In this document: positions 733-52,655 of the stretch, piece after piece
Layout: every line of letters begins with the position of its first letter
Numbering within the stretch: position 1 is the stretch's first letter
Assembly (NCBI GenBank): GCA_017441845.1
Contig: JAFRVB010000008.1
Coordinates: 46,143 to 110,142, forward strand
DNA: 64,000 nucleotides
Direction of reading: 5' to 3'
Origin: Bacilli bacterium
Lineage (GTDB): Bacteria; Bacillota_I; Bacilli_A; RF39; UBA660
Position numbers and translations under genes: made by a program
Notes under the pieces: model-generated
What the model was told of the DNA's origin: nothing
The model's input: the letters and a program-made list of their open reading frames with translations, nothing else
Database searches by the model: none

Positions 733-793
733 ACAAATTCTCCTATACTAAAATTATAACATAATAATCAAGTTTTTAATAGAAAAAAACTAA

Positions 794-837
794 TAAAAAA
801 GAGTAAAAATATCAATATTTTTTCATATTTTTACTCT
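794..837 (-). terminator. Rho-independent terminator after the class C sortase gene
   Basis: 12-bp arms gagtaaaaatat (801-812) / atatttttactc (825-836), with an A-run at 795-800 on plus giving a T-run on minus. Confidence 0.6.
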
Positions 838-858
838 TCTTTTAAATTTACCTATTTT

Positions 859-1764: not shown

Positions 1765-1787
1765 ACAATTATCATAACATATTATTA

Positions 1788-3869: not shown

Positions 3870-3888
3870 TAACAGCACTCCCTTTCTT

Positions 3889-6285: not shown

Positions 6286-6334
6286 AATGCTCCATTATCA
6301 ATTTAATTTTATCATTTTTAAACTCTCTTTTCAA

Positions 6335-6369
6335 CAAAAAAAGAGATATAAAATTAACTTATATCTCTT
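6335..6369 (-). terminator. Rho-independent terminator after the 780-aa gene
   Basis: aagagatataa (6341-6351) / ttatatctctt (6359-6369), with an A-run on plus immediately upstream giving a T-run on minus. Confidence 0.6.
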
Positions 6370-8710: not shown

Positions 8711-8741
8711 ATTGCTTTATCCTTTATATATAAATTATAAC

Positions 8742-8770
8742 AAAAAAAGAAGTATATTTAAACACTTCTT
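8742..8770 (-). terminator. Rho-independent terminator after the 211-aa gene
   Basis: agaagt (8748-8753) / acttct (8764-8769), with an A-run at 8742-8748 on plus. The stem is short. Confidence 0.4.
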
Positions 8771-9406
8771 TTATAAAACATCTAGATCATCTTTCTTTTC
8801 TTCTACGACAGGTTTTTCTTCTTTTAATTCTTCAGGTTTAGACTCCTCTTTTTTAGGTGGAGTTTCGCCTCTCCTCTCATAGTTTAAGACTATAACAAAT
8901 TCATAAATTTGATATACAAATACTAATAGAATTGGTAGTAATACGAATAACAAGAATCCTATTCTAGTAACTAAGAATGACATTATTGAACCTAATCCTC
9001 CCATAGCATTAGCATACTTTCCTAGAGTTCTAGTTTGAGCAACATTCAACTTAGTTTTCTTATTTCCACTTACTAAAGTATCTATAGTATATAGTGAATT
9101 ATAATCATCTTTTTGAATATTCTCTACTATACCAGTTCTTATAACATATCTATCATTAACAGTAGCATAATAGTAAATTCTATCTCCTTTAACTATATCA
9201 GTACTACTCTTAACAATTAATAAATCTCCTGATTTAGTATTTTCTACATATTTAGCAGTTGTACCATCTATAGGAGAAATAGTATACTTACCAAATTGAG
9301 TAAAACCAAATTTATTTCTACATAATATACAAGAAGTTAAAAATATAACATAAACTATAATAATTACTTCTATAATATTCCATAATGTTTTTAAAATATT
9401 TTTCAT
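8771..9406 (-). CDS. SipW-like membrane protein lacking the catalytic residues (putative pseudo-peptidase)
   Basis: It aligns by eye with B. subtilis SipW and with the 431-aa neighbour: FGFTQFGKYTISPIDGT vs FGY....SGSMEPT; VKGDRIYYY..YVIRTGI vs KGDVITF..LVTHRII; LGKYANA + TM vs IGKYADI + TM. However SGSM, THR and KGDxN are all absent. The C-terminal tail is charged. Confidence 0.45.
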   Translation of the reverse strand: MKNILKTLWNIIEVIIIVYVIFLTSCILCRNKFGFTQFGKYTISPIDGTTAKYVENTKSGDLLIVKSSTDIVKGDRIYYYATVNDRYVIRTGIVENIQKDDYNSLYTIDTLVSGNKKTKLNVAQTRTLGKYANAMGGLGSIMSFLVTRIGFLLFVLLPILLVFVYQIYEFVIVLNYERRGETPPKKEESKPEELKEEKPVVEEKKDDLDVL

Positions 9407-9450
9407 ATCCTCACCAACTCCATATTATCATATTCATTATTCTTTTTCAA

Positions 9451-12400: not shown

Positions 12401-15400
12401 ATGTAGACGTTAGCTTTACTTGTAGCAGGACTAACTTCTCCAGTAGCAGCGGCATTTCCTGAACCAAAGACACTACCTGTTGCTGGTTTTCCAATCTCTT
12501 GGTCAGTACCAATTACTGAATCACCATCAATGTAAATTGATGAATTTCCTTTAACAACGGCAGTAGAACCATTACCTCCGGCATAAGCAGAACCATTAAT
12601 TTCCCCATTAGTTATACGAAGTACAGTATTACCAGTAACAACTCCTTGGTTACCTCCACCATAGACATTTCCAGTAATAGTTGAATCATCAATGTCTACT
12701 GAGGTATTACCATTAACTTGAGCTTGGTTACCTCCACCATAAAGTACTCCAATTTCAGATCCATGTTTAACTATAACAGTTGTTGTACCAGTATTGGCTT
12801 GATTACCTCCACCATATACAGCATTAACTGTAGCTTTATCTATAGTAACTTTAGGATTTGATGTAATTCCACCTTCGTTATTACCTCCATATACGCTACC
12901 AACATTAACAGTATTACTATTATTTCCAACTTGAACATCAGAATTAGTAACATTTCCTTGTTCGTTAGCACCACCATATACATCAGTAATATTTCCACCT
13001 AGTATCTTAACATTAGTATTAGTAACTCCTATTTTGTTACCTCCACCAAAGACACTACCAACATCTCCGGCATAAGTGAAGACATAAGAATCACCAACTG
13101 AACCATCTACATTATTACCACCATATACTTCATTGATATTAATATTTCCATTAGTACCAGTATTAACACCAATTACTACTCTGGTTTGATTAACTGTACC
13201 ATTACTATTTGATCCACCAAATACTTGGTCAGCAGTACCAGATAATACAGTAACATTAGTCCCAGAAGTAACACCAGCAGCGTATCCACCACCATAGACA
13301 TCATTTACTGTACCACTAGTGATTGTTACATTTGTAGTTGTACAACTAGCTTGGTTTCCTCCACCATAGATATCACCAGAAATAGTTGCACCATTGAAAT
13401 CAACATTAGTTGTTGTTACTGTACCTCCCAAGTTGTTTCCTCCATAGATGTTCGCAACAGAACCAGAAGTTGCAGTAACATGTGTAGTTGTAACATTACC
13501 ACTATTATTAGATCCTCCATATATGTTAGATGTTACAGTAGAACCTTGTAAATAAACATTAGTTGTAGTTTGACCAGTGTTATTTCCTCCACCATAAACA
13601 TTTCCAATAGTTCCACCTTTTAAGTAAACAACATCACCCTTAGCAGGAGAACCCATTTGATCATTTCCACCATATACAGCAGTAATATTACCACCATTTA
13701 TATTGACTGTAACATCACCCCAAACATTAGGAGTAAATGTTCTATTATTGTAAGTACCACCCTTAGCGCCTCCAAAGACACTTCCAGTTACAGTACCTTT
13801 ATTAACATTAACTGTCGTTGTGTAATTTGATGTTGAATTAGAATTATAGTTTCCATTTACAGTTCCAAATGCAGATCCACCATAAACATTCTCTCCAATT
13901 TTTAAACTAGTTGCGCTTGTAGTATTAGTAGCATCTCCGACATTTACTGTAACATTTCTAGTAACCGCTGTACCATTAGTTCGTCCAGTACCACTAGTTA
14001 CTCTACCTCCTTCACCACCACCATATACACTCTTAGTGACAGTTCCATTAACTAAATTGATATTAACATTTCCATAAATTGTACCTTTGGCATTACTACC
14101 ACCATAGATAGAATCAGAAACAGTACAATCACCATCCATAGTGATATTAATATTAGAAACTACTGAGGAATCACCAGCACCATTGTTATTACCTCCACCA
14201 TAGACACTACCTTTAACATCACCAGATTTTAAAATTATTTTGGTATTAGTAGTACCACTAGCATTTAATCCAACAGCTCCAAAGTTACCTCCACCATAGA
14301 CATCACCATTGATAGTACCACCATCAATGAGTACTGTAGAGTTTAAAGCTGTACCAATGTCATCTCTTGAATTGTTACCATTACCAATACCAAAGACATT
14401 ACCAATTCCTTGACCAAATGCAGTCGAAGTTCCAGTAACACCAACAGTCGCTGTACCACCAACATAGACAAATGTTGAACCATTCAAGATACCTGTTTCA
14501 GAACTATAGCCACTAATCGCGTATCCATTTGATCCTCCAAAGACACTTGATCTTACTGTCGAACCAGTTAGGTTAATAATACGATTACCATAAGTCTCGG
14601 CAGAACCAGCTCCACCAAAGACAACATCAATAATTCCACCTTTTAAGTTCATAAAAGTATCATTTTGGTTAGTTCTTGTACTACTAGTACCAAGCCCTCC
14701 AACCAAAACGTAGATATCTCCACCTTCAACTACAATTGTACGAGTAGCATATACAGTACCACCACGTCCACCAACATAGATTCCAGTGAATGGGTCGTAT
14801 TTACTGGTACCAAATTTACCACTCTTAACATAAATCGTATAAAGGTTTCCTTGCTCACTAGAAGAACGTAAAGTACCTCCAGCAGCACCTTGTACAGAAT
14901 AATAAACATCTAAGTTTGTATTATTAGCATTTGTAATTCTATCATAATCACAACCTAAAATTAGTTGCCCATCTAAGTATAAATTACCAGAATATTGTTT
15001 AGTTTCAGTACCATAGATATTACTATATCTACCACTCTCAACAATAGTTGTATATCTTTCTGGAGCTGATGATGAACCAACAGTTGTTGTAATACCTCCA
15101 GCACTTCCTCCAAAGACAGAAGTTGCTGCTACATAACGTGCATCAGTAATACCTCTACCTATTTTTAAGTTATGATAATTTGCAATAATTGCTACAGTAT
15201 TATTAGAAAGACCAGAGTTAGTCAACTGAGTAGACCTAGCTGTTCTATTGTAAAAATACATATACTCAATTCTAGCATCTTCATTTAACATCAAATAGTT
15301 ATTAGAGTTTGTAATTCTACGATTACTATAAAGTGTACCATTATCCATACCAGTAACAGTACATGGCTTAGATATAGTAAACGCTGTAGTATCAGAAGTA

Positions 15401-17499
15401 ATAAGCATGATATTAGTATCTCTAGTAACTAAGTAATAATATTGTTCATCTCCAGAAGCTAAAGTAGTATTAAGATCTTGTACTAAATCATAAACTTCAC
15501 AAGTACCAGAACATGTTCCAGATAATTGAGATCCAATACTATTGTAATAACCAACTTGAGATTGTCCATTACTTAAACTTTTCTTTTCAAAGTATCCCGC
15601 AACACTATCTCCAATATTAATTAAGTATGAATAGTTATAACTTACAGGTTGAGGAAGAGTACCATTATATACTTGTGGATTACCATTATTACGTAACGTA
15701 TAAACAGTTTCAGTAGTATATTCATATACTCTCAAATAATATGTACAATCTTGAGCAACCCATCCTTGACGTCTATCCCAATAAGGTGTACATGAACTAT
15801 TCTCTAAACTTTGTCTATTTTGGTTAACTGCTCCAGCAGGATAAGGAACACCACTTTGATTAGTAGTAGAATTTATAGTTCTTCTAACATAAACTTCTGG
15901 GAAAGTAATTCCAGGAGCATAAACTGGTGTTTTATTAGTAATAGGAACCATACCTCTACTCTTTAAACTACTTTGATTATTACCAGTTACTTTAGTAGCT
16001 TCAGTCCATGAAGCTTGAACATTAATATTTACTACATCTCCATCATAATTACTAGCAATAGGTACTTTCAAATATCTAACATAAACATCAGTATCTAGTG
16101 TAATTGTCGCATTAGGATAATTAGTAACCCATCCATTAAATGCTTTATCATTAGGTCTATCTGCATAAGGACTATCAATTAATGGAATCTCAATATATTT
16201 ATTACTTCCACTACCTTGAATAGGATAATATTTATAATAAATAAACTTAGATACTTGTTCATCTAAAGATACATATCCTACAGCACTACTATCATTAATA
16301 TCTTCTCCATCATAAGAAATATAAACTTTAGCTAAATTAGTATTAGTATAAAGATTCAAATTAGTACCATCAGGTATAACTCCATCAGTTTTACCTGTAT
16401 AATTACGACCCATAAAGTCATTATAGTCACTTTCTAAATCATTAACATATAAAGTATCTCCTGATCTACCACTATCATGTAGTGTAATAGTTCTAGGATT
16501 AAATCCAAAAGATGTAGGTTTATTAACAGGTTTCTTGTCTTCTACTCCAACATAGAATAAATTCTCACTATCATATTTCCATACTAAGTCTTTTAAATCT
16601 CTATTAAATAAATCTAAAGCAGTAGTTACACTATACTCTTCATCTTCATATACTAGTTTGTTTTCTCCACTCATTTTAATTACATATTCACTAGTAATAC
16701 CTTCTTCAATATAATTGAATTCTTCTAACTCTAAACTAGTATCAACTCTATAAACAACATTAGTAATATTAGTAATAAGATTACTACTTACTATAGCAAC
16801 ATTAGTATTATATTTAGAACTAATCTTACCATCTACAAAGATATTTTTAATACTTTTAATCTCATCAATACTACCAGTTAATAAACCTATACCACTACCA
16901 GCAATACTCTTAGTATTAGCAAGATTAATAGTAACTCTAGATACACTAACGTTATAAATATCACTATCTCCAGTAATAAATCCTGCTAGTCCACCTACAA
17001 ATAACATCTTACTATTTTGAACAGGTTCTATGTTAAAGTTACTAATATTTAAATTCTTAATTGAAGCATCTTCTAAATTAGAAAATAATCCATAGCATTC
17101 AGAATTATCAATATCATAACTACTAGTCATATTGATATTAGAAATGAAATTTCCATTACCATCTAAATGTCCTTTAAAAGTGGCAAAAGGAGTAATATAG
17201 TGATTATCCAAGTCTATATTAGCTCCTAATTTATAGTATTTATCTACATATTCTTCATCTTGTTCTTCCAAGACTTTCTTAAAGTACATCAACTGATTTC
17301 CATCATTGATGACATACGGATTAGCCTCAGTACCATTACCCGAAGCAAAATCTGTACCAACGGTAATACCATCCCATTTTGTATAAGTAATCTCTGCTAA
17401 AGAACCATTAGAAAAAAAAGAAACAATACTAAAAGAAAAAACTAATAGTACAAACATAGCAAAAGTAATATACATTAATTTATTCTTTGTATTGTTCAT
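9451..17499 (-). CDS. Giant (2682 aa) secreted adhesin-like protein: GLUG-type N-terminal region, ~1000-aa Gly-rich beta-helix repeat core, Ig-like C-terminal region
   Basis: Single uninterrupted 8-kb ORF. Leader ...FFSNGSLA|EITY. The N-terminus reads GTEANPYVI..FKGHLDGNGNFISNINM..YGLFSNL..FVGGLAGFI (GLUG-like). The core repeats [VI][YF]GG[GSN]N..G.V..T.V every ~25 aa. No LPxTG or other recognisable wall anchor. Confidence 0.8.
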   Translation of the reverse strand: MNNTKNKLMYITFAMFVLLVFSFSIVSFFSNGSLAEITYTKWDGITVGTDFASGNGTEANPYVINDGNQLMYFKKVLEEQDEEYVDKYYKLGANIDLDNHYITPFATFKGHLDGNGNFISNINMTSSYDIDNSECYGLFSNLEDASIKNLNISNFNIEPVQNSKMLFVGGLAGFITGDSDIYNVSVSRVTINLANTKSIAGSGIGLLTGSIDEIKSIKNIFVDGKISSKYNTNVAIVSSNLITNITNVVYRVDTSLELEEFNYIEEGITSEYVIKMSGENKLVYEDEEYSVTTALDLFNRDLKDLVWKYDSENLFYVGVEDKKPVNKPTSFGFNPRTITLHDSGRSGDTLYVNDLESDYNDFMGRNYTGKTDGVIPDGTNLNLYTNTNLAKVYISYDGEDINDSSAVGYVSLDEQVSKFIYYKYYPIQGSGSNKYIEIPLIDSPYADRPNDKAFNGWVTNYPNATITLDTDVYVRYLKVPIASNYDGDVVNINVQASWTEATKVTGNNQSSLKSRGMVPITNKTPVYAPGITFPEVYVRRTINSTTNQSGVPYPAGAVNQNRQSLENSSCTPYWDRRQGWVAQDCTYYLRVYEYTTETVYTLRNNGNPQVYNGTLPQPVSYNYSYLINIGDSVAGYFEKKSLSNGQSQVGYYNSIGSQLSGTCSGTCEVYDLVQDLNTTLASGDEQYYYLVTRDTNIMLITSDTTAFTISKPCTVTGMDNGTLYSNRRITNSNNYLMLNEDARIEYMYFYNRTARSTQLTNSGLSNNTVAIIANYHNLKIGRGITDARYVAATSVFGGSAGGITTTVGSSSAPERYTTIVESGRYSNIYGTETKQYSGNLYLDGQLILGCDYDRITNANNTNLDVYYSVQGAAGGTLRSSSEQGNLYTIYVKSGKFGTSKYDPFTGIYVGGRGGTVYATRTIVVEGGDIYVLVGGLGTSSTRTNQNDTFMNLKGGIIDVVFGGAGSAETYGNRIINLTGSTVRSSVFGGSNGYAISGYSSETGILNGSTFVYVGGTATVGVTGTSTAFGQGIGNVFGIGNGNNSRDDIGTALNSTVLIDGGTINGDVYGGGNFGAVGLNASGTTNTKIILKSGDVKGSVYGGGNNNGAGDSSVVSNINITMDGDCTVSDSIYGGSNAKGTIYGNVNINLVNGTVTKSVYGGGEGGRVTSGTGRTNGTAVTRNVTVNVGDATNTTSATSLKIGENVYGGSAFGTVNGNYNSNSTSNYTTTVNVNKGTVTGSVFGGAKGGTYNNRTFTPNVWGDVTVNINGGNITAVYGGNDQMGSPAKGDVVYLKGGTIGNVYGGGNNTGQTTTNVYLQGSTVTSNIYGGSNNSGNVTTTHVTATSGSVANIYGGNNLGGTVTTTNVDFNGATISGDIYGGGNQASCTTTNVTITSGTVNDVYGGGYAAGVTSGTNVTVLSGTADQVFGGSNSNGTVNQTRVVIGVNTGTNGNININEVYGGNNVDGSVGDSYVFTYAGDVGSVFGGGNKIGVTNTNVKILGGNITDVYGGANEQGNVTNSDVQVGNNSNTVNVGSVYGGNNEGGITSNPKVTIDKATVNAVYGGGNQANTGTTTVIVKHGSEIGVLYGGGNQAQVNGNTSVDIDDSTITGNVYGGGNQGVVTGNTVLRITNGEINGSAYAGGNGSTAVVKGNSSIYIDGDSVIGTDQEIGKPATGSVFGSGNAAATGEVSPATSKANVYITGGTIYGNVYGGANTSVVYGNTNVYLGTEAMPSGVTLTEADLHIYGTVFAGGEANASGSDIYDFSFVSVTDDAQIIIDGKDYGTHSHDFIVNGSFFGSGNNSVIADTATSTIYIRNLGTRDHINESVSIQRANKVVIDNSCLELSGAIDSTNEYQTYKYSISRVPDFTIKNGTMLLLRENANLLETFKSMVGEDGQEVKADVDIDDESKTVTRTVDNRLYMLANKALNVATSQDATVPGEVWGMTFFGMYTGTGHNPNFGVYEDSYNYGDTTESTNYIFAGSYVKGAHVTDHDIEVDGFYTNVNANDTYTELKTQYITPHPNSADYYIWSIGVNTINYEFNLSASKYSSLGTYNLVMDDFGTGSTTFNVLDFDAADLEDGISLVDSNNVPKVAYDATTANSTFGISMKAETREWTSYGTTKLLSVNNGDYTGTETYKTDTQSIAPSLMFYFYHAKNITYTGDLGTVVLTLQALTPRNAIEFNEQLVTITINLDAIEFDMDDAYDASITYGKKYDMPSATAVNITNRSQFSAYFSMVASPESFKKFYGDDGDNYHAIVSDYALPVGAEITMIDTSVDGEPKEYYYTVDATNYAQKTQQLQTDHEVTYLLSDFIAMDSTTTTNTYDDETMNQIYYNSTYNLVVEEFMFIVDLKNCTNTGENKGNTFLFELRNNEDRTMYYVLAPRQEHMVYSTYDSANSTLTETVNMGSFVYQDIDNNVTLTTAVTYNVTDGRESIIDTNYESNAMGINLEIIDHSGNTVSSSLLTGTSIHLGNQDYFADADGIFRIKLAGKVSNLTNNMVFKTDKLLPAGNYTFRFSLFSSSDGMHAPANPVVTDKNVTVVATTSSIVVNGVDENKVVDGALALNELGNNHNAYTVKYTSTLNNPNIRVSLYKRTTNDSEDTTYNEVDITSLFDVNLSSPNHPQSLYEKQITLSSSPISIDWDFQSSLTSGSYKLTFKLYDSDTLIDSDYEMIIVKKKLVSGS
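12060..15130 (-). repeat. In-frame degenerate ~75-nt (about 25-aa) beta-helix repeat array inside the giant gene
   Basis: Runs such as VYGGGNNTGQTTTNVYLQGSTVTSN / IYGGSNNSGNVTTTHVTATSGSVAN / IYGGNNLGGTVTTTNVDFNGATISGD / IYGGGNQASCTTTNVTITSGTVND. Boundaries are read from GITDARYVAATSVFGGSAGG (~15120) to FFGSGNNSVIAD (~12100). Confidence 0.7.
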
Positions 17500-17525
17500 A
17501 AGTCCTCCCCAAAAATTATGTTAGA

Positions 17526-18821
17526 TTATTCATTTACATAATTTTTAATTTTAGCTAGTCTTTCAATCTTATCTAATTCAAATATGTCATTATTATCATA
17601 TTTCTTAGATATCTTCTTCATAAAGCTCATAATATTTTTAATCTGTTTCTTAGAGTAACCATCACCCTTTTTAATAACTCTGAAATGATCTTCTTTATCA
17701 ATCATGATCTTATATTTCATAATTTTAAATATTCCATCAAAGAATGCTTCATCATTGTAGATGATTGCTAAGACTAAGATTCTTAAGAATACATATATCG
17801 GCATCTCATATATTTTATTTCTAAGATTTTCATATAAACCTATCTTTTCTAAATCATAATCATAAATCTCTTTAAATGATGGATGTTCTACATTTTCAAA
17901 TAAACTCTTAGTATCTCCAAGATAAATAATATTAGCTAACTTATAGATGTATTGATATTTAGTTAACCATTTCTTATTGATTCTAGAAGTATCTATAGAA
18001 TTATTTTTAACTCTCAATAGATTATTAATCTGTTCAATAAGTTCTATTTCTTTATCTCTTTGACTATTCGTAATAGTAACAATGTTATTAGATTCAATAT
18101 CAAGAACCTCTTCTTCTTGAAGTACTTCTATACCATCGTTATCTAAAACTTCTACTTCTTGTATTTTCTTTATATCTTCTATTTCCTTCAAAGGAATAGT
18201 TATTGTTAAACCACTATGTTCATAATTCTTTCTATCTTTAGGTGAACTAAATACATCTTGTGGTAATACTTCTTTATCAAAATCATGAACTACTTTCTCT
18301 TCTCCCTCTTTGACAATATATTTCTTAAAAATTTTATCGAAGTTAAGAAGAGCAACACCAATTACGATGATCAACAGTACAGCGATAAACTCAAGTATCG
18401 TCTTTGGCGAGATGATTCCAACTACTTTACCAATAACACTGTTTCTAGTAATCGCATCATCTTGAGTATTATTCGCATCTCCCTTAGTAATTATTCTGTT
18501 TCCACTAGTTTGAATAATTCTGTGAGTGATAATATCTCCGTTTTTATTTTTATATGAAATAATGTCATTGTTTTTAACATTATCTGTTAAACGTACAAAA
18601 ATTATGTCATTCACTTCAATAGTTCCACTCATTGATCCAGTCGCAACTACGAAGTAAGAATAACCAAAAATATTAACATAATCTTTCTTCATAATATCTG
18701 TTACTACAAAGGTATAAACAGACAACATAATTAGCAACACTAAAAAGCCATAAGCAACATACTTAATATTCGCTTTAATGATGCCTAAAATTTCCATAAT
18801 TTTATCTCTCACACTATTCAT
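17526..18821 (-). CDS. sipW: SipW-type (archaeal/ER-type, S26B) signal peptidase I with a ~270-aa C-terminal extension
   Basis: FGYSYFVVATGSMSGTI..NDIISYKNKNGDIITHRII..ITKGDANNTQDD..VIGKV, followed by a TM segment, tracks B. subtilis SipW motif for motif (SGSMEPT, THRI, TKGDNN). About 270 further residues follow the second TM segment. Confidence 0.85.
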   Translation of the reverse strand: MNSVRDKIMEILGIIKANIKYVAYGFLVLLIMLSVYTFVVTDIMKKDYVNIFGYSYFVVATGSMSGTIEVNDIIFVRLTDNVKNNDIISYKNKNGDIITHRIIQTSGNRIITKGDANNTQDDAITRNSVIGKVVGIISPKTILEFIAVLLIIVIGVALLNFDKIFKKYIVKEGEEKVVHDFDKEVLPQDVFSSPKDRKNYEHSGLTITIPLKEIEDIKKIQEVEVLDNDGIEVLQEEEVLDIESNNIVTITNSQRDKEIELIEQINNLLRVKNNSIDTSRINKKWLTKYQYIYKLANIIYLGDTKSLFENVEHPSFKEIYDYDLEKIGLYENLRNKIYEMPIYVFLRILVLAIIYNDEAFFDGIFKIMKYKIMIDKEDHFRVIKKGDGYSKKQIKNIMSFMKKISKKYDNNDIFELDKIERLAKIKNYVNE

Positions 18822-31710: not shown

Positions 31711-31794
31711 GCTCGCGTGGCGGAACTGGTAGACGCGCACGACTCAAAATCGTGTAACTTTGTTGTAAGGGTTCGAGTCCCTTGGCGAGCACCA
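31711..31794 (+). tRNA. tRNA-Leu (anticodon CAA), class II, CCA encoded
   Basis: Acceptor GCTCGCG/..GCGAGC-A-CCA (one 7-66 mismatch). The D arm contains GG. Anticodon stem CACGA/TCGTG with loop CTCAAAA. Long variable arm. T arm AAGGG-TTCGAGT-CCCTT. Confidence 0.9.
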
Positions 31795-31887: not shown

Positions 31888-32148
31888 ATGACTACGATTA
31901 ATATTACAAACGCAAGACAAAATCTTTTTAAATTAGTTAGTGATGTAAATTTAGGCTTTGATCCTATAACAATCGTAAATAATAAAGGCAAAAATGCTGT
32001 GTTGATTTCAGAAGACGAATGGAAAAATATAGAAGAAACACTATATTTAACTAGTATTCCGGGTTTTGTAGAAAAAATCAAACAAATAGACAAAGAAGAA
32101 AATTGGCAAGTAGCAGAGGAATATGAACCATATGGCGAATGGAAATAA
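31888..32148 (+). CDS. yefM: Type II antitoxin, Phd/YefM family
   Basis: MTTINITNARQNLFKLVSDV..AVLISEDEWKNIEETLYL matches the YefM N-terminal pattern. AGAGGTG RBS. The start is moved to 31888. Confidence 0.85.
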   Translation: MTTINITNARQNLFKLVSDVNLGFDPITIVNNKGKNAVLISEDEWKNIEETLYLTSIPGFVEKIKQIDKEENWQVAEEYEPYGEWK

Positions 32149-32413
32149 TAAGTACAAATTATTGTTCTCAAAAACGGCCATCAAAGACAAAACTAAACTT
32201 AAAAATTCTGGTCTAGAGAATAATTGTAGAAAAATACTTGATATAATGATTGACGATCCTTTTAAATACCCACCATCTTATGAAAAATTAGTAGGGGAAT
32301 TATCTGGGTTTTATTCTAAAAGAATTAATCGTCAACATAGAATTGTTTATAAAATAAATGAAAAAAAGTGTGAAATATATATCTACAGAATGTGGACTCA
32401 TTATGATGACTAA
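32132..32413 (+). CDS. yoeB: Type II toxin, YoeB/Txe family (ribosome-dependent mRNA interferase)
   Basis: KL.FS..A..D...L....L......I.....DPF..PPSYEKLVGELSGFYSKRINRQHRIVYKI....I.I.RMWTHY. It overlaps the yefM stop. ATG 32132 is preferred over 32123 on RBS spacing. Confidence 0.85.
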   Translation: MANGNNKYKLLFSKTAIKDKTKLKNSGLENNCRKILDIMIDDPFKYPPSYEKLVGELSGFYSKRINRQHRIVYKINEKKCEIYIYRMWTHYDD

Positions 32414-32438
32414 AAAAGAGGATTAATATCCTCTTTTT
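32412..32438. terminator. Bidirectional terminator between yoeB and the pilin-like gene
   Basis: aagaggat-taat-atcctctt, flanked by A6 and T4. Confidence 0.7.
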
Positions 32439-32439
32439 A

Positions 32440-34536
32440 TTACCATTGTAATTGGAATGCTTTTATATACGACCATTGGCAAGTAGTAGCCGCATGATCA
32501 TGTCCATATGCATAACGACAACCATTACCTACACCTGTTAAATAAAACCAAGCACCACTATCCTTGTCGGTCGCTGCATAGTTACCATTAATAGCCCAAC
32601 CACCATTCCAATAAAAGTATTTTCCTTCTTTTATACATGTTATATCATTTTTCTTTGGATGAGCATCTTCAAGTGGACCAGATCTTTCTACAACATTTCT
32701 ATTATTTGCGCTATTACAAGTTTTAGCATAAACTCTAAATTTACTATAATCATAAAGATAAGCCGGATTAGGAGTAATAATAGAATAGTATGTTGCACTT
32801 TGTTTTACTGAAAGATTTCCATATACACCTGTTCCCGCATTTGGATCTGTATTCCATCCTTGAACAATTAAAAGACTACTATAAGAACTTCCACAACCAC
32901 TAACAGCTGTAGCTGGTAAATTAGATATTCCTGGAGCTGACACAGTACAAGCTTCATTATCAAAAGCTGAACAAGATAAAGTTCTATTAGCGCCATTAAA
33001 GTAAGCATGATATCCTTGATATACAAAATTAATATTATATGTATTATATACTTTCCAATTAGCATATAGAGTTATATTACAGTCCTCATATTCTTTATTA
33101 CAGAAGGCCTTATAATTATATTGTTGAGTCTGATTATAACTAGTTCCAGTTCCATTTGCTTTTGTATTCCATTCATATCCTGTTTTTATTGAATATCCCG
33201 TCTTATACATATTTAATGCTGAAGGATTATTCCAATTTAATAGTCCTTCACTTGTTAATGATTCCCATTCTTTCATAACATAAACCACAGGATTTCCATT
33301 ATATAAAATATTATCATTACTATCTATAGTGTAATTACTTGTAGTAGTTGTTGTTGTACTACCACCTGAACTACCGCCTGTATTTTTACACATACTTGGG
33401 TCACGTTTGCATATTCTTATACATCGTGAACTTGATGGTTTTTTAGAACATAATGCTTTAAAATATGTTCTACATGATGAACTTGTTGAATAATTACCAC
33501 ATTTACTATTCCAATATGATTCACATTGTGAAGATAATGGATTATTTTCACATAATTGTTTAAGATATGATTCACAGCCAGCAGTCGTTGGGTTTCTTTT
33601 ACATCTTTTTTCTCTCATACATTCAGAACTATTTGGTCTTTTATCACATACTGAACTTGTAGATGTTCCAACACTACTTCCGCCACTTCCACTACTTGTT
33701 GCTTTAATTTTTCCACCATTAGCTTTAAGTTTTATTGTTACTTTTCCTACAAAGTATTTTATTGTTAATTCCTTATTTACCACTGTTTTATTATTATTAA
33801 TATCTTCTACAGTTCCAGTTACAACTAATTTATAAATAGTAGTTTCATTTATTGCACTCATATTAGGTACATTAGGAATAGTTCTTTCGATTGAAGGATC
33901 ATAGTTTTTATTTTTAAAGTAAAGCGTTGATGCTCCAACCGATTCTCCTTCTTTAAACCATTCATATTTTAACTTTTGATCTGCTTTTAATCCTACACCT
34001 GCATCTGATATAGCCATTCTAATTTTAGGATCTTGTCCTTTCTTATAAGCAGGATTATCTTTATAAGGACTAGTATCTTTTAAGATAGCATCTGGTCCTT
34101 GTCCATCTTCAATTTTACACATATCTTCGAAATCAACAGGCTTTGATTCACCATATATTATTTTACTATTTTTTCTACAAGCAATATGAGGTTCATAATG
34201 ATAATTAAGATTTTTACTTCTTCGTACAATTATATATGTATCTTCACTTCCACAATTAACTTTTTTGATTTGAATATCTTCAATAAAATCTTTTTCTTCT
34301 AAATCAGCATATCTGATAATTGCACAACCAGTATTATTTATACCAAACAAATCTTCATTATAACTATCTGTATATGCTTTTCCAGCACTAGTTAATGCCT
34401 TTTCATAAGCAACAAATTTAGCATCTCTATTATTATCTTGAATATATCTAATAGAAGGAATTGCTATTATTGTAATAACTCCAAGTATCGCAATAGCAAC
34501 TACTAATTCTATTAATGTAAAACCTTTATTTTTCAT
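32440..34536 (-). CDS. Very large protein with a type IV prepilin N-terminus (cleavage/methylation motif), Cys-ladder repeats and Listeria-Bacteroides repeats
   Basis: MKNKG|FTLIELVVAIAILGVITIIAIPS is a canonical class III signal (G-1, F+1, E+5). The start is set to ATG 34536, 7 nt after AGGTGG. Mid-protein Cys-rich repeats are flanked by G/S/T linkers. C-terminal region has GYEWNTKANGTGTSY..ITLYANW and VQGWNTDPNAGTG. Confidence 0.75.
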   Translation of the reverse strand: MKNKGFTLIELVVAIAILGVITIIAIPSIRYIQDNNRDAKFVAYEKALTSAGKAYTDSYNEDLFGINNTGCAIIRYADLEEKDFIEDIQIKKVNCGSEDTYIIVRRSKNLNYHYEPHIACRKNSKIIYGESKPVDFEDMCKIEDGQGPDAILKDTSPYKDNPAYKKGQDPKIRMAISDAGVGLKADQKLKYEWFKEGESVGASTLYFKNKNYDPSIERTIPNVPNMSAINETTIYKLVVTGTVEDINNNKTVVNKELTIKYFVGKVTIKLKANGGKIKATSSGSGGSSVGTSTSSVCDKRPNSSECMREKRCKRNPTTAGCESYLKQLCENNPLSSQCESYWNSKCGNYSTSSSCRTYFKALCSKKPSSSRCIRICKRDPSMCKNTGGSSGGSTTTTTTSNYTIDSNDNILYNGNPVVYVMKEWESLTSEGLLNWNNPSALNMYKTGYSIKTGYEWNTKANGTGTSYNQTQQYNYKAFCNKEYEDCNITLYANWKVYNTYNINFVYQGYHAYFNGANRTLSCSAFDNEACTVSAPGISNLPATAVSGCGSSYSSLLIVQGWNTDPNAGTGVYGNLSVKQSATYYSIITPNPAYLYDYSKFRVYAKTCNSANNRNVVERSGPLEDAHPKKNDITCIKEGKYFYWNGGWAINGNYAATDKDSGAWFYLTGVGNGCRYAYGHDHAATTCQWSYIKAFQLQW
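33340..33720 (-). repeat. In-frame cysteine-ladder repeat (alternating C-x8-C / C-x7-C, 4-5 units of 17-18 aa)
   Basis: CDKRPNSSEC-MREKR-CKRNPTTAGC-ESYLKQL-CENNPLSSQC-ESYWNSK-CGNYSTSSSC-RTYFKAL-CSKKPSSSRC-IRI-CKRDPSMC, bracketed by SSGSGGSSVGTSTSS and GGSSGGSTTTTTTS. Confidence 0.7.
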
Positions 34537-34583
34537 AAACATCCACCTATTATAATTATATTATAAATAATAAAAAAGAACAT

Positions 34584-34608
34584 GAAAAAAAAGAACTATA
34601 TAGTTCTT
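34584..34608 (-). terminator. Terminator after the tRNA-like gene
   Basis: aagaact-atat-agttctt, with an A-run at 34584-34592 on plus giving T8 on minus. Confidence 0.7.
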
Positions 34609-34624
34609 TTTACGTAAACAAAAA

Positions 34625-34700
34625 TGGTGCCGAAGAGATGGACTCACACCACTAACCTGCTACAAACAATGTAGCTGCTCTAAAATTGAGCTACTCCGGC
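34625..34700 (-). tRNA. Non-canonical tRNA-Thr(UGU)-like gene (or pseudogene), CCA encoded
   Basis: Minus-strand read: GCCGGAG-TA-GCTC-AATTTTA-GAGC-A-GCTAC-ATTGTTT-GTAGC-AGGTT-AGTGG-TGTGAGT-CCATC-T-CTTCGGC-A-CCA. The acceptor, D and anticodon stems are intact. The D loop lacks GG, the T loop is TGTGAGT instead of TTCRANT, position 37 is U, and there is one extra nt before the 3' acceptor strand. Confidence 0.55.
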
Positions 34701-34712
34701 ATCTGTAAGTAA

Positions 34713-34721
34713 ATTATACCA
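34713..34721 (-). promoter_or_regulatory. Extended -10 promoter (TGgTATAAT) immediately upstream of the tRNA-like gene
   Basis: The reverse complement of attatacca (34713-34721) is tggtataat. The predicted TSS lies a few nt before the tRNA 5' end. Confidence 0.45.
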
Positions 34722-34746
34722 AATTAAATCAAAAAAATCTATATAA

Positions 34747-35316
34747 TTATAGATTTTCTTCATCTTCTTTAGTATATAGATCTAATTCTTCATCTTTTAC
34801 TTCTTCACTTTGTTCAATAAATTTATTCATATCAGGCAAATCTTCTATTGAAGATAAACCAAAATAATCTAAGAATTCATTAGTAGTTTCATAAAGAATA
34901 GGTCTTCCTGGTAAATCACTTCTACCACTCTCTTTAACAAAACCTTTCGCAACTAACTTTCTAATTAATTGAGAAGAACTAACTCCTCTTAAATTATCTA
35001 CTTTAATTCTAGTTATAGGTTCATTATAAGCTATTATCGCTAAAGTTTCTAAAGCTGCTTGAGATAATTTATTAGTAATAGGATTCTCTATTAATTTCTT
35101 ATAATACTCTTTATGTTCTTCTTTAGTAGTTAGTTTAAATCTATTACCTAAAAAATCTATTCTAATACCACGATTATCATCTTCATAATCTTTTTTTAAT
35201 TCAGTTACTAATTCTTTAGCTTCATCATTACTTATTTCTAATACTTCTTCTATTTGTTCAAGAGTTAATCCATCTTCACCCATCACAAATAATAGTCCTT
35301 CTAATACTGCTTTCAT
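34747..35316 (-). CDS. scpB: Segregation and condensation protein B
   Basis: LEGLLFVMGEDGLT..LETLAIIAYNEPITR..RGVSS...IRKLV.KGFV. It overlaps scpA. Confidence 0.9.
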   Translation of the reverse strand: MKAVLEGLLFVMGEDGLTLEQIEEVLEISNDEAKELVTELKKDYEDDNRGIRIDFLGNRFKLTTKEEHKEYYKKLIENPITNKLSQAALETLAIIAYNEPITRIKVDNLRGVSSSQLIRKLVAKGFVKESGRSDLPGRPILYETTNEFLDYFGLSSIEDLPDMNKFIEQSEEVKDEELDLYTKEDEENL

Positions 35317-47780: not shown

Positions 47781-50561
47781 TTATCTAGTATGTTGTCTAC
47801 TTCCTATATCTTTAGTTTCCAAATTCAATTCAATTTGATGAGTAAGTTCAACCAATTTATTAATATCCATAATAATATTAAAATTATTATGTTGATCGCG
47901 ATCAGCTTTATCATACAAATAAACTTTATCTTCTACTATATTACCATCTTCATCTTTAACAGGTTTAAATCTAAAATGACATATAGAATTTCTCATCTTA
48001 TCTAAAATATTATTTTTTAATGATTCATCAGTTCTTTCAGTACCTGTTCCATCTAAAGTAAATTGTCTTAAATAAGTTGTGTCATCCATATCTACATCAG
48101 TAATATTATTTTTATATTTCATTGTATCTCTAACGCAAGAAAGTATTATTTGTAATGGAGTTTCGTCAATAAGATCATAATCAGCATTTTCTTTTTGATA
48201 GTTTTTTAATACACTATCACAATAAACTAATGTAGCAATTAATTTTGGATTATTAATACCAAATATACTTTTAGCAAGATTTTCATTATAATTTTTATAC
48301 ATTTCATCTACTAATGCAGAATCACACTCAAAGAATTCTTTAGGTAATTTTTTCAAACGTTCATAATCATCATCAACCAAATCCAACAAATAATTTATTC
48401 TATCAACTAAATCATCATCAACATAATGACCCCTTTCACCACATTTTTCCAAATAAACGTCATAAGAAAATTGATTTACATCTATCCCATTATTAAAAAG
48501 AGTTGAAACTAAATCTGGTAAGTAAAAAAAACCACTATCTAACTTATAAATATCTATCCCTTGATCAGACAAGTAAATTGTCTTTTCAGAATTTGCTAGA
48601 GCTTCTTTAGGGAGATTATAAATATTAATTTTTTTATGTTTTAAATCAATAATTTTATCTGCATAAAGCAAGGAATCATATGGAATTTGACAAAAATCTA
48701 TTCCTTCTTTTATTAATTGTATAGCTTCTTGGGGATGCTCAAAAGCACCAAAAGGTAAATTATAAATATTTATACCTTGGTTAAATAATTCTAAAGCAGA
48801 TTCAGAATTATAAAACGCTTCTTTAGAAATACTATAAATATCTATTCCAGCATCTCGTAATTTTAAAACTTCATCAGGATATTCAAAGGCAATATCAGGT
48901 AAATTATAAATATCTATTCCATTTTCAAATAATTCGATAGTAGATTTTGAATGTGCAAATGCTTTATTGGGAATATTATATATATCTATTCCGAGCTCAA
49001 ATAATCTAATAACTTCTTTAGCAAAGTAAAAAGCATTATATGATAATTTATAAACATCTATTTTTTTATCATGCATATCAATAACATCTTGTACATTGAT
49101 AAACGCAGTATCCTTCAACCTATATATATCAAAACCTTTATTTTTTAATAATACGACATTTTCAGGAAATTCAAAAGCACCAAACTCGATATTAGTAATA
49201 TCTATACCATTATCCTGCAAAAAAAGTGTTCCTTCTCCTTTTACATATGCAATATATGGTAATTGAGACAATTCATTAATTTTTATACCTCTTGCTAACA
49301 ATTTTGCTGTTAATTTAGGATATTCAAATGCTTCAAAACATAAATCGTTCATGTTAATATTCAATTCATTAAATAACAAGGTGGCTTGAGGAAAATAAAA
49401 AGCACATTCCGGTAATTCCATCAAGTTAAGACCTTTATCAAAAAATAGTAGTGTTGTATCAATATTTTTAAAAACACTAGAAGGTAATCCCTTAATATCA
49501 ATCTCTTTCTTAATTAATTTTTTAGTTCCATCATAATTATCATATACAGTACTAGGTAAATTACTTATATCGACTCCTTTTTCATACAAATCAACAGCAC
49601 ATTCTGGATTTTTAAACACTGATATATTTAGACTATTTATATCCTCCAAGCTAATACCATGTTCAAACAAATATCTAAAACCTTCTTCATTATTAAAAAT
49701 ATTTATATTTAACTCATATAGTTTATCATAATCATAATCCAACAATTCAAGTAAATAGTTTAAATAACATGGTTCAACATTATAGAAAAAACTTTCTACT
49801 TTTTTTACATCGTAACCAAGTTCTTTTAATATTGAAGATGATATAGTGCTAGTTTTTTCTACTAATATTTTATCTTCCTCGTAAGCTATTATCCTTCCAT
49901 TAGTTAATCCATTTACGTATTCAATTGGTATTTTCACACTAAAGCCATTTTCATTTATAAACATTTCATTATTTATATCAGCAGTGCCATGTTGGATAGC
50001 ATTTCTTAATTTATGGATTATATTAATAGATTGTTTTAATACGTTTACAGCTTCTAACTTTTCTATCTCATCATTAGAATTTTCTAGCTTTACCCAATCA
50101 ATTTTACTATAAATTTCTATCGCTTCTTTATAGTTTCTTAACAACTCTCTTTTTGCATTAACTTGAACCTTAAATGCAGCTTTTTCTTCTTCAATTTTCA
50201 AATGTTCTTCAGTATTAGTTGCAGCATCGTGTTTACTTGCAATTCTATTAAGTTCATCTTTCATATCATTTAATTCTTTAAGAAATTTATCATACTCTTG
50301 ATATAAAGTATCATTCTCTTTTATATATTCACCCAAAAAAATAATATTCCAAATATCATTATAATTATTTAAATCAAAGATTAAGTTGCTTCCTTCTTTT
50401 CTAATAATAAGTTCTTTTCTTTTTATAAAGCGCGAAATAACACTCTTAAAATACGGATCTCCACTACTAAACATTCCATCCCTTCCGAATAAAATGTTTT
50501 CAGTTTCTTCCATGCCGTTAGCTGATATTACATTTTTAGCAACTTCATATAATCTTGACAT
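47781..50561 (-). CDS. Cytoplasmic 926-aa protein: HEPN-like RNxxxH motif - ~17 x 24-aa solenoid repeats - HEPN-like RNxxxH motif
   Basis: KLRNAIQHG (R186/H191) and KMRNSICHF (R857/H862). Central units resemble GIDIYNLPDIAFEYPDEVLKLRDA. No signal peptide or TM segment. Family unknown to me. Confidence 0.5.
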   Translation of the reverse strand: MSRLYEVAKNVISANGMEETENILFGRDGMFSSGDPYFKSVISRFIKRKELIIRKEGSNLIFDLNNYNDIWNIIFLGEYIKENDTLYQEYDKFLKELNDMKDELNRIASKHDAATNTEEHLKIEEEKAAFKVQVNAKRELLRNYKEAIEIYSKIDWVKLENSNDEIEKLEAVNVLKQSINIIHKLRNAIQHGTADINNEMFINENGFSVKIPIEYVNGLTNGRIIAYEEDKILVEKTSTISSSILKELGYDVKKVESFFYNVEPCYLNYLLELLDYDYDKLYELNINIFNNEEGFRYLFEHGISLEDINSLNISVFKNPECAVDLYEKGVDISNLPSTVYDNYDGTKKLIKKEIDIKGLPSSVFKNIDTTLLFFDKGLNLMELPECAFYFPQATLLFNELNINMNDLCFEAFEYPKLTAKLLARGIKINELSQLPYIAYVKGEGTLFLQDNGIDITNIEFGAFEFPENVVLLKNKGFDIYRLKDTAFINVQDVIDMHDKKIDVYKLSYNAFYFAKEVIRLFELGIDIYNIPNKAFAHSKSTIELFENGIDIYNLPDIAFEYPDEVLKLRDAGIDIYSISKEAFYNSESALELFNQGINIYNLPFGAFEHPQEAIQLIKEGIDFCQIPYDSLLYADKIIDLKHKKINIYNLPKEALANSEKTIYLSDQGIDIYKLDSGFFYLPDLVSTLFNNGIDVNQFSYDVYLEKCGERGHYVDDDLVDRINYLLDLVDDDYERLKKLPKEFFECDSALVDEMYKNYNENLAKSIFGINNPKLIATLVYCDSVLKNYQKENADYDLIDETPLQIILSCVRDTMKYKNNITDVDMDDTTYLRQFTLDGTGTERTDESLKNNILDKMRNSICHFRFKPVKDEDGNIVEDKVYLYDKADRDQHNNFNIIMDINKLVELTHQIELNLETKDIGSRQHTR
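48460..49700 (-). repeat. In-frame 72-nt (24-aa) tandem repeat array, about 17 diverged units
   Basis: GIDIYNIPNKAFAHSKSTIELFEN / GIDIYNLPDIAFEYPDEVLKLRDA / GIDIYSISKEAFYNSESALELFNQ / GINIYNLPFGAFEHPQEAIQLIKE / ... read from the translation. Confidence 0.75.
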
Positions 50562-51587: not shown

Positions 51588-52655
51588 TCATAAAAATAAT
51601 ATTAAAGTTACAACAACCCCTAATGTTATTAATATTGATCCAGCAATTATAAATGTAGATACTACACCTTCACTATTAATCTTTATCTCTTCAGGTGTTT
51701 CCTCTATCTTTTCTTTTAAATTATCAATATTTAAAAACTCTATATCTTTAGAATCAATATCTTTATTACATATAACATTATTATAATTATTATTAATTAA
51801 TCTATCTAAAATAATAAAATAATCTTCTTCTTTAAATTCATCAATAAATTTATCTAAATCTAATTTATTATTATCAATAACTTTTCTTTTAACTAGAATA
51901 AAACTACTATTATTATAATTATCATTATTTAATAATTTCCATTCTCTATTAAACACATCTATAATTTTATTACTATCTTCTAAAGAAATATTTAATTTCT
52001 TAATAACTTTATTAATATTATCTAAACAACTCTTATAATCTTTCTTAACATAGCAATCTTTATCATTAAGATGTTCATCTCCACATATTAAATCATAAAA
52101 GTACATAGGGCTTCTTAATGAATAAAAATAAGCTAATTCCATACTATCAGTAAATACTACTTCATCTAAAGTAAAATCTTTATTAATATAGTTATCTTTA
52201 TATTTATTAAGTATCTCTTTTAACATAATAAAATCATTATATAAATTAGTATACTTATTAATCTTAAATCCATTATTTTTAATACTCTCAGTATATATAG
52301 GACTATAAGCATGTATAAAATAACCATTCTCTATATATTTTAAATATACATATCTAATAAATTCTTCTTTATCAGTAATATTAACTTTATTTACTAAGAT
52401 CATACTAAGTAATTTATTAATACCATCTTTAATACTAAATTCTTTTTCTATTCTTCTAAATAATAAATCTAATTCTACTAAATAATTTTCATAATAACCT
52501 ATATTATCAATTATTAAACTAAATTTATATATTGCATCATAAAAGATTCCAATTAAATCATAATTAGAATACTCTCTTCCTTTATATATTTCATAGGTAT
52601 AAAGTTTATCTATGAATTCTTTTGTGTCATCTCTCTCTAGTAATTCTTTAAACAT
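51588..52655 (-). CDS. Tail-anchored hypothetical protein (355 aa)
   Basis: Soluble N/K/Y-rich body with a single C-terminal TM segment (VVSTFIIAGSILITLGVVVTLILFL). It occupies the slot where def usually lies. Confidence 0.45.
   Translation of the reverse strand: MFKELLERDDTKEFIDKLYTYEIYKGREYSNYDLIGIFYDAIYKFSLIIDNIGYYENYLVELDLLFRRIEKEFSIKDGINKLLSMILVNKVNITDKEEFIRYVYLKYIENGYFIHAYSPIYTESIKNNGFKINKYTNLYNDFIMLKEILNKYKDNYINKDFTLDEVVFTDSMELAYFYSLRSPMYFYDLICGDEHLNDKDCYVKKDYKSCLDNINKVIKKLNISLEDSNKIIDVFNREWKLLNNDNYNNSSFILVKRKVIDNNKLDLDKFIDEFKEEDYFIILDRLINNNYNNVICNKDIDSKDIEFLNIDNLKEKIEETPEEIKINSEGVVSTFIIAGSILITLGVVVTLILFL

Follow-up and report, generated by a model that had tools for sequence, protein, structure and literature searches.

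Sequence and Predicted Structure of a tRNA-Thr(UGU) Variant

The 64-kb window analyzed here, which is the whole stretch of 64,000 nucleotides from contig JAFRVB010000008.1 of a Bacilli bacterium, contains on its minus strand, downstream of scpB, a non-canonical tRNA-Thr(UGU) paralogue of 76 nucleotides, referred to below as the variant. The gene extends from G1 at 34700 to A76 at 34625, with the anticodon UGU at 34668–34666 and an encoded CCA end at 34627–34625. An earlier note on this DNA had described a tRNA-like gene with intact stems, this anticodon and an encoded CCA, together with a missing elbow (no G18G19 and a T loop UGUGAGU), a pyrimidine at position 37 and an irregular T stem, and every one of these details was found at 34625–34700. 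Read from 34700 to 34625, the gene runs GCCGGAG UA GCUC AAUUUUA GAGC A GCUAC AUUGUUU GUAGC AGGUU and then AGUGG UGUGAGU CCAUCU CUUCGGC ACCA.

The acceptor stem, GCCGGAG/CUUCGGC, has 7 bp including the pair G5·U68 and is followed by a GCUC/GAGC D stem with a 7-nt D loop (AAUUUUA) that lacks the GG dinucleotide, and by a GCUAC/GUAGC anticodon stem whose loop, AUUGUUU, places U at both position 37 and position 38. The T loop is UGUGAGU, and a discriminator A precedes the encoded CCA. One surplus nucleotide lies between the T loop and the acceptor strand and interrupts the T stem, which can be drawn either as GUGG/CCAU, with 4 bp and two unpaired nucleotides before the acceptor strand (−24.2 kcal/mol), or with 5 bp and one bulged nucleotide (−23.1 kcal/mol). 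The minimum-free-energy fold of the variant is a cloverleaf (z = −3.06). U8, A14, A21, A15/U48, G10-C25/G45, A9 with U12-A23, and G46 with G22-C13 are all retained; these are the sites of the core tertiary contacts in canonical tRNAs, and the elbow between the D and T loops is the only tertiary contact predicted to be missing.

In canonical tRNAs, decoding and factor binding make use of a purine at position 37, the G18G19/Ψ55C56 contact and an unbroken T stem, and A37 is the site of N6-threonylcarbamoyladenosine (t6A) in tRNAs that read ANN codons. The variant departs from this arrangement at all three places. Across the seven distinct versions of the gene described below, the D loop reads AAUNNNA, with GG in none of the seven, and the T loop is UGURAGU, constant except for R57, in place of UUCRANY. 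U37 and U38 occur in every version, as does the extra nucleotide, which interrupts what would otherwise be an unbroken T stem of 5 bp stacked against the acceptor stem.

Detection by tRNA Finders

By the full RF00005 model the variant is a tRNA, although one odd enough to slip default filters. It scored 39.0 bits (E = 1.4e-7) against a gathering score of 29 when an 86-nt query was searched with lax Infernal filters, yet went unreported by a default-filter Rfam search of the 64 kb at the gathering threshold, and a permissive search (E ≤ 10) of 500 nt gave no tRNA match at its position. These misses occur because the speed filters drop the gene and are not a failure of the model. ARAGORN, whose scores had been proposed as a check alongside those of Infernal, called tRNA-Leu alone in the window with default settings; at 95% of the default threshold (-ps95) it called a tRNA-Thr(tgt) with exactly the ends of the variant.

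A covariance model built from the seven versions (R1) found one copy in the window, the variant itself, at 105 bits. With this model the variants score 104–106 bits, the canonical Thr(UGU) genes of sister clades 65–69, Thr(CGU) 60 and Thr(GGU) 38, and nothing falls between the variant class and the canonical genes. Given that default ARAGORN and filtered Rfam skip the variant, such tRNAs are probably under-annotated.

Transcription Signals

The variant is preceded by an extended −10 promoter, TGgTATAAT (34713–34721, minus strand), 12 nt upstream of G1, from which a leader of about 5–6 nt is predicted, removable by RNase P. It is followed by an intrinsic terminator (34611–34588, minus strand) with the stem AAAAAGAACU/AGUUCUUUUU, the loop AUAU and a T run to 34585. 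Both signals had been proposed for this gene before: the −10 element was recovered as described, and the terminator was likewise present, with the difference that the span given for it, 34591–34608, is the core of a hairpin that reaches from 34611 to 34588.

TATAAT lies 12–13 nt upstream of G1 in all seven lineages, and the extended form TGnTATAAT is present in 5 of the 10 contigs displayed; the contigs L107 and L104, which lack the TG, have instead a consensus −35 hexamer, TTGACA or TTGACT, 17 nt upstream. A hairpin and T run follow 5–20 nt past the CCA at every homologous locus, with a stem sequence specific to the lineage, so that promoter and terminator are kept in position while their sequences diverge. 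A simple promoter/terminator scan lists neither of the two, the promoter because its −35 hexamer is weak and the terminator because its stem is AT-rich and the scan demands at least three G-C pairs; the calls therefore rest on conservation across loci and not on the scan. An additional AT-rich hairpin with a T run (34731–34757, minus strand), also found in L011 and L111, overlaps the stop codon of scpB and is predicted to terminate the scpAB unit, separating it from the variant. With its own promoter, its own terminator and this separate scpB hairpin, the variant therefore forms its own transcription unit.

Distribution in Relatives

scpB (34747–35316, minus strand; Pfam PF04079), the conserved upstream neighbor, served as the anchor for orthologous loci. 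Eighty scpB loci (locus identifiers begin with L) were fetched from species-representative genomes independently of any tRNA-like sequence, and further loci came from protein look-ups and from a scan of metagenome contigs with a DNA pattern that fixes the D arm and UUGUUU and places no constraint on the T arm, anticodon stem or acceptor stem. U37 and U38 are seen in three versions that were found independently of this pattern (window/L011, L012, and L015). The window derives from an uncultured organism with a G+C content of ∼27%, and its relatives are metagenome-assembled genomes (MAGs) from rumen and gut, deposited as Bacilli, Erysipelotrichaceae, 'Tenericutes' or Mycoplasmatota; the carrier MAGs include CAMVLZ01, CADANC01, and CAZALI01.

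The seven distinct versions are those of window/L011/L101/L113/L121, L105, L012/L098/L100/L125, L015, L091/L094/L107/L109, L104, and L114/L115/L124. On a neighbor-joining tree of ScpB the carriers form one clade, which reaches down to ∼75% ScpB identity and in which every member with enough downstream sequence carries the variant, with the exception of one lineage (L111/L112). L113 (1319–2013) is discordant: its variant is identical to that of the window and has a very similar upstream spacer, but its ScpB is 83% identical and clusters outside the carrier clade, which may reflect recombination within scpB or the weakness of a tree of 190 residues. In sister clades scpB is followed by a canonical tRNA-Leu(CAA) alone, or by tRNA-Leu(CAA) and then a fully canonical tRNA-Thr(UGU). 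These sequences place a single origin of the variant at the base of a low-GC gut/rumen Bacilli clade, from the clade's own tRNA-Thr(UGU).

The exceptional lineage, L111/L112, has a ScpB 91% identical to that of the window, shares the gene order and is nested inside the carrier clade, and lacks the variant. Comparison of L111:5745–5935 (and L112) with L011:6570–6743 showed that the promoter-gene-terminator cassette has been replaced by ∼165 nt of unrelated AT-rich DNA, which sits between the scpB terminator and tRNA-Leu, and no copy of the variant was found in 12–15 kb of L111/L112 with filters off. The lineage constitutes a natural knockout for phylogenetic profiling toward a partner gene. Viral contigs held no copy of the variant, and an origin as a phage tRNA was rejected on that ground.

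Three further observations concern individual loci. In the metagenome contig L009 (1176–1251), the variant breaks off after nucleotide 34 and is joined to an Illumina adapter (AGATCGGAAGAGCACACGTCTGAACTCCAGTCAC) at the contig end, an assembly artifact of the public record. L004:1311–1386 is a metagenome copy of the window type with G71 changed to A; the resulting C2·A71 mismatch at a threonine identity pair stems either from faulty sequencing or from a rare allele. At L116:2459–4238, from a near relative that does not belong to the carrier clade, genes for SpoVAC, SpoVAD, and SpoVAEB lie beside scpAB, which suggests spore formation in at least some of this 'Mollicutes-like' gut group.

Conservation and Compensatory Change

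All seven versions are 76 nt in length and align without gaps. Mean pairwise identity is 91% for the gene as compared with 67 and 64% for the 60-nt flanks, and 96.6% of the stem cells are paired. An alignment of orthologous loci, suggested in the earlier note as a way to look for compensatory change, revealed both-sided changes at four pairs, namely 5-68 (A-U, G·U, and G-C), 28-42, 29-41, and 30-40, as against zero both-sided pair changes in slid controls. Pair 27-43 is the sole stem exception to compensation, being G-C in two of the versions and G·A in the other five. The other variable columns are D-loop positions 17–19 and positions 32, 44, and 57. Positions 17–19 evolve fastest in the molecule, with no compensating change in the T loop; therefore, no substitute elbow contact has evolved.

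The variant is separated from the canonical Thr(UGU) of sister clades by 13 fixed differences. Pair 7-66 has changed from A-U to G-C (a compensatory change), the D loop is one nucleotide shorter and has lost GG, 27 and 31-39 are changed, A37A38 has become U37U38, U55C56 has become G55U56, and the T stem has gone from ACGGG/CCUGU to AGUGG/CCAUCU with the extra nucleotide. Read from the aligned genes, this is the signature of a single burst of change at the clade root followed by stasis, and it points to a new function and not to decay. The variant is thus very probably a functional, selected tRNA-Thr paralogue.

Genomic Neighborhood

A canonical tRNA-Leu(CAA) (31711–31794, plus strand) is called in the window both by ARAGORN and with RF00005 (49 bits). 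In relatives this gene lies 50–200 nt from the variant (L011, L012, L015, L098, L100, L104, L105, L107, and L113–L115), and in the window ∼2.8 kb of other genes intervene. These include a 700-residue protein (32123–34542) whose N terminus bears a prepilin-type methylation motif and whose central repeat is rich in Cys and Ser, beside which a YoeB/YefM toxin-antitoxin pair is encoded. As the gap between the variant and tRNA-Leu is only ∼50 nt in L011, the 700-residue protein seems to have been inserted in this lineage specifically; two paralogues of the pilin-like protein occupy the corresponding site in L105. Between scpB and nrdD the gene content varies by lineage and comprises surface proteins, sortase, pilin-like proteins or a toxin-antitoxin pair. 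A role as a cis-regulator of the downstream pilin-like gene was considered and rejected, as the variant has its own terminator and the downstream gene is different in every lineage, and so was a remnant of an integrase att site, as the gene is full length with compensatory changes and is not a 3′ fragment.

Several features elsewhere in the window were also recorded. A 2682-residue open reading frame without a Pfam match (9451–17499) lies within a cluster (136–18821) of sortases and VWA, SpaA, and Cleaved_Adhesin surface proteins, together with an S24-like peptidase. A 926-residue protein (47781–50561), with only a C-terminal HEPN match (pEK499_p136), is encoded between fmt and rlmN, the position usually taken by rsmB in related Firmicutes operons, and a 355-residue protein without a family match (51588–52655) lies between priA and fmt. 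Outside the window, a marine contig (L092:2162–2785) carries a tight array of six tRNAs, two of which ARAGORN calls tRNA-Thr(UGU) with insertions of 52 and 30 nt following the anticodon; these two may contain introns or be of phage type.

A Candidate Reserved Threonine Donor

Threonine identity resides in acceptor-stem pairs and anticodon nucleotides (PMC9976931), and the first three pairs of the T stem determine how tightly EF-Tu binds the tRNA body (PMC7826273, PMC3239215). The threonine identity elements are present in the variant at the sequence level: G1-C72, C2-G71, C3-G70, G4-C69, A73, and U34-G35-U36 are invariant and the same as in canonical Thr(UGU), and the D stem and core tertiary-contact positions are also invariant and as in the canonical gene.

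A mechanism can be proposed in which the transcript would start about 6 nt upstream of G1, stop at its own terminator and be trimmed to a 76-nt cloverleaf with an encoded CCA end. Threonyl-tRNA synthetase (ThrRS) would then load threonine, the identity positions being unchanged and invariant. With no elbow lock, a broken acceptor/T-stem helix, U37 (and so no t6A37) and U38, the product would be a poor ligand for EF-Tu and the ribosome; the Thr-tRNA would thereby escape translation and could become a reserved donor for an aminoacyl-tRNA-dependent transferase encoded elsewhere. For this transferase, a Fem-type cell-wall branching enzyme would be the best precedent, with a lipid, glycan or peptide aminoacyl-transferase equally possible. 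L-Threonine forms part of the peptidoglycan cross-bridges in a number of Gram-positive bacteria, and in Micrococcus roseus it is incorporated in a tRNA-dependent manner. A wall is present here, since sortases, wall-anchored proteins, a PASTA kinase, and UppS are all encoded in the window.

Several observations favor this reserved-donor mechanism. The changes spare the threonine-identity positions and affect instead the elbow, the T stem and position 37; the variant has been lost in one nested lineage without a change in the use of ACA; and the UGU of the T loop matches the triplet of the staphylococcal non-proteinogenic (NP) tRNA-Gly (PMC7826273). To this extent the earlier suggestion of a specialized, non-ribosomal tRNA is partly supported; a partner enzyme, for which a genome search for FemABX/MurM, MprF-like, and cyclodipeptide synthase (CDPS) genes had been proposed, was not found in the window or the related loci. 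As a whole, a ThrRS-charged, non-proteinogenic Thr-tRNA donor is the best reading, a tentative one that falls a little short of being probable.

Several points weigh against it. No Fem, MprF, CDPS or other aminoacyl-tRNA-dependent enzyme was found in the 64-kb window or in ∼100 related loci. Within the window, the search comprised Pfam on 30 proteins, NCBIfam on the 10 that lacked a Pfam match and precomputed Pfam for the central 20 kb, and among the proteins searched none matched the FemAB, DUF2156/MprF, Acetyltransf_6, CDPS, LanB or L/F-transferase types. The scpB–nrdD stretch contains no transferase candidate either, and its varying content offers no functional link. The loss in L111/L112 shows that the function of the variant is not essential. 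ThrRS is assumed to tolerate U37/U38 and the missing elbow, and RNase P also uses the tRNA elbow, so that processing of the variant could be inefficient. The pairing of the T arm is not fixed by the data, the T arm being invariant; the covariation sample of seven related sequences is small for such statistics; and a canonical tRNA-Thr is absent from the window by both ARAGORN and R1, in a search confined to the window.

Alternative Explanations

The alternative of a decaying pseudogene, a redundant tRNA-Thr(UGU) copy on its way out, was raised in the earlier note and would agree with the failure of default tRNA finders to report the variant, with its deletion in L111/L112 and with the G·A at 27-43 in five of the seven versions. 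Decay is, however, difficult to reconcile with the retention of the gene, its promoter and its terminator throughout the sampled lineages of the clade apart from L111/L112, where absence or random degradation in close relatives had been named as the outcome that would count against function. Nor does it account for an identity between lineages of 91% in the gene against ∼65% in the flanks, or for compensatory stem changes of a kind that the slid controls lack. Moreover, the derived features are identical in all lineages and are not lineage-specific damage, nothing intermediate links the canonical form to the variant, and the lineage-specific flanks, together with the compensatory changes, argue against the very recent transfer of one sequence. 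A pseudogene was rejected on these grounds and is very improbable. A working translational tRNA-Thr(UGU), serving as the sole or an auxiliary decoder of ACA/ACG and tolerating the missing elbow and U37, is another alternative, and some organellar and endosymbiont tRNAs do work in translation in such a state. Decoding would also require the strict conservation seen in the acceptor stem, the anticodon UGU and the CCA end, the RF00005 score lies above the gathering threshold, ACA makes up ∼30% of Thr codons, so that some UGU tRNA must exist, and the window holds no canonical Thr(UGU). ACA is nevertheless used equally, at 16.4 per 1000 codons, in the carrier loci and in L111/L112, which have lost the variant (as compared with 19–20 in sister clades), and the variant is therefore unlikely to be the sole decoder of ACA. 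Near scpB, the majority of sister lineages lack a Thr gene, and an essential Thr(UGU) elsewhere in the genome is therefore the norm. The canonical Thr(UGU) beside scpB is scattered over at least four subclades, a pattern consistent with an ancestor that carried a redundant second copy here. The neighboring tRNA-Leu(CAA) and the tRNA-Thr genes of relatives are fully canonical; therefore, the translation system is normal, not degenerate, and the oddity is specific to the variant. The fixed changes hit positions of decoding and factor binding (purine 37 with t6A, G18G19/Ψ55C56, and the continuous T stem), and D-loop positions 17–19 drift freely with no compensation in the T loop. A translational role is thus quite unlikely. 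We infer that the variant coexists with a canonical tRNA-Thr(UGU) in the same genome, and on the sequences compared it would best be seen as a redundant copy reused for a new role.

That new role might also be one without amino-acid donation, in which a tRNA-derived RNA would act as a ThrRS-binding or uncharged-tRNA-type regulator, as a decoy for a toxin or nuclease, or as a protein-binding small RNA. Conservation and covariation show structural selection and leave its purpose unspecified, a partner enzyme is lacking nearby, the variant is dispensable in one lineage, and it resides in a variable region rich in surface proteins, with the YoeB/YefM module adjoining in the window. Against such roles, T-box leaders and ribosome-dependent sensors rely on the very elbow that the variant lacks, and the toxin-antitoxin neighbor is absent from other lineages. 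The invariant set (1-72 to 4-69, A73, CCA, and U34-G35-U36) is, in addition, what a substrate for aminoacylation needs (PMC9976931). A non-donor RNA of this kind is somewhat unlikely.

tRNA-Thr Genes Linked to Fem/MprF-like Proteins

The metagenome pattern also retrieved unrelated tRNA-Thr genes, L095, L097, L099, and L110, on environmental contigs of 37–52% G+C. In L097 (9378–10504) and L099 (3585–4638) the tRNA lies ∼45 nt downstream of a protein of 319–334 residues without a Pfam or NCBIfam assignment, and L110 (1–264) repeats the junction of L097, its copy of the protein being truncated. L095 shows the tRNA only (48–119), as the contig begins 47 nt upstream and the upstream gene is out of view. 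The protein belongs to a large, uncharacterized family of about 320–340 residues with 4176 matches at E ≤ 1e-5. Three more members picked at random (four contigs, L117–L120; L117:6001–7125, L118:6001–7110, and L119:6001–7181) again had a tRNA-Thr-like gene downstream, such that a tRNA-Thr was found 45–125 nt downstream of every examined member with downstream sequence (five distinct loci). The L117–L120 loci encode glycosyltransferases, Wzy, Wzz, and Asn-synthase-like amidotransferases, and are surface-polysaccharide loci.

An AlphaFold model of a family protein has a mean predicted local distance difference test score (pLDDT) of 71, with most of the core at 80–94. Its best matches in the PDB are enzymes that depend on aminoacyl-tRNA, namely the Sbb17/Sba18 peptide synthases (E = 8e-11) and FemX (E = 4e-8), followed by the L-PGS, A-PGS, and MprF transferase domains, with L/F-transferase lower in the list. 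The linked tRNAs keep G35U36, have one bulged T-stem nucleotide and a 7-nt D loop often without GG, and their anticodon loops break decoding rules, with U37U38 in L095, L097, and L099 and C33 in L118. The UUGUUU loop common to both groups is not independent evidence, because it was imposed by the search pattern. A tRNA-dependent threonyl transferase served by a tRNA of its own is a possible identity for the family, and its loci lend support to the general idea that tRNA-Thr paralogues with such defects accompany aminoacyl-tRNA transferases. tblastn and a hidden Markov model of the family (A2) found no homologue in the window or at any scpB locus, and the family does not identify the partner of the variant.

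The literature yielded no described non-canonical tRNA-Thr or threonine-specific non-proteogenic tRNA. The clade keeps under selection what is predicted to be a second threonine tRNA gene, perhaps the second known tRNA reserved outside protein synthesis. It is possible, and we advance this more guardedly than the mechanism itself, that no non-proteogenic tRNA for threonine, and none beyond Staphylococcus, precedes the variant, which would be chargeable by ThrRS, hidden from EF-Tu and the ribosome and feeding a transferase that acts on wall, lipid, glycan or peptide, and that with the Fem-like pairs it represents a recurrent solution. If so, an independent second case with another amino acid would show that the reserved-tRNA solution is general and would point to a threonine-adding pathway, as yet unknown, in abundant uncultured gut and rumen bacteria. 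The variant would also be a natural experiment in what excludes a tRNA from translation (elbow, purine 37, and continuous T stem), of use in tRNA engineering, and, should the Fem-like/tRNA-Thr pairs also prove true, the recurrent bacterial solution would have a recognizable signature that standard finders filter out. The knockout lineage L111/L112 and the R1 covariance model make the partner enzyme findable.

Comparison with Known Systems

The documented precedent for tRNAs withheld from translation is a single one, the cell-wall tRNA-Gly of staphylococci, comprising NP1–NP3 of S. aureus and Ia/Ib of S. epidermidis, which are glycine donors for FmhB/FemA/FemB. In these tRNAs the T loop has TGC or TGT where TTC is usual, position 19 is U/D and the T-stem pairs are weak, and they do not bind EF-Tu-GTP or ribosomes (PMC7826273), in agreement with the earlier note, which had cited their altered loops and poor EF-Tu binding. 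According to the same 2020 study, extra tRNAs kept out of translation were detected only in S. aureus and S. epidermidis (PMC7826273). Like the NP tRNA-Gly, the variant is a lineage-restricted paralogue of a normal isoacceptor, predicted to be an extra gene; UGU, as against UGU/UGC in the staphylococcal genes, replaces UUC in its T loop (and with it Ψ55), G18G19 is lost, the T stem is predicted to be unfavorable for EF-Tu, and the synthetase identity elements are kept. It differs in being a tRNA for threonine from uncultured low-GC gut/rumen Bacilli and not from Staphylococcus, in adding a pyrimidine at position 37, U38, a 7-nt D loop and a helix-interrupting extra nucleotide, and in standing alone as one gene that has a promoter and a terminator of its own. 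No Fem transferase accompanies the variant in the window or related loci.

The Fem-linked tRNA-Thr group (L095, L097, L099, L110, and L117–L120), associated with a GNAT protein, shares with the variant a Thr-like cloverleaf, G35U36, a 7-nt D loop (in this group often without GG) and a one-nucleotide irregularity of the T stem. In contrast to the variant, however, these tRNAs have a normal GUUCRAAU T loop, a bulge on the 5′ strand, the anticodon CGU or UGU, a discriminator U and no encoded CCA, and are not homologous in detail; a putative transferase gene lies upstream of them, whereas the variant has no such neighbor.

The canonical Thr(UGU) genes used for comparison follow tRNA-Leu(CAA) downstream of scpB in L014, L031, L032, L054, L069, and others. 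The variant resembles them in its length of 76 nt, D stem, variable loop (AGGUU) and genomic neighborhood, and is identical to them in the first four acceptor pairs, A73-CCA and the anticodon, but it precedes or is convergent to tRNA-Leu, which the canonical gene follows. Finally, the variant has lost G18G19/Ψ55C56 and kept the cloverleaf helices, as have the elbow-less tRNAs of mitochondria and endosymbionts. Those tRNAs still translate, in a setting where the whole tRNA set and its factors are degenerate or co-adapted, whereas here one gene alone departs from the rule and both tRNA-Leu and the tRNA-Thr genes of relatives are canonical.

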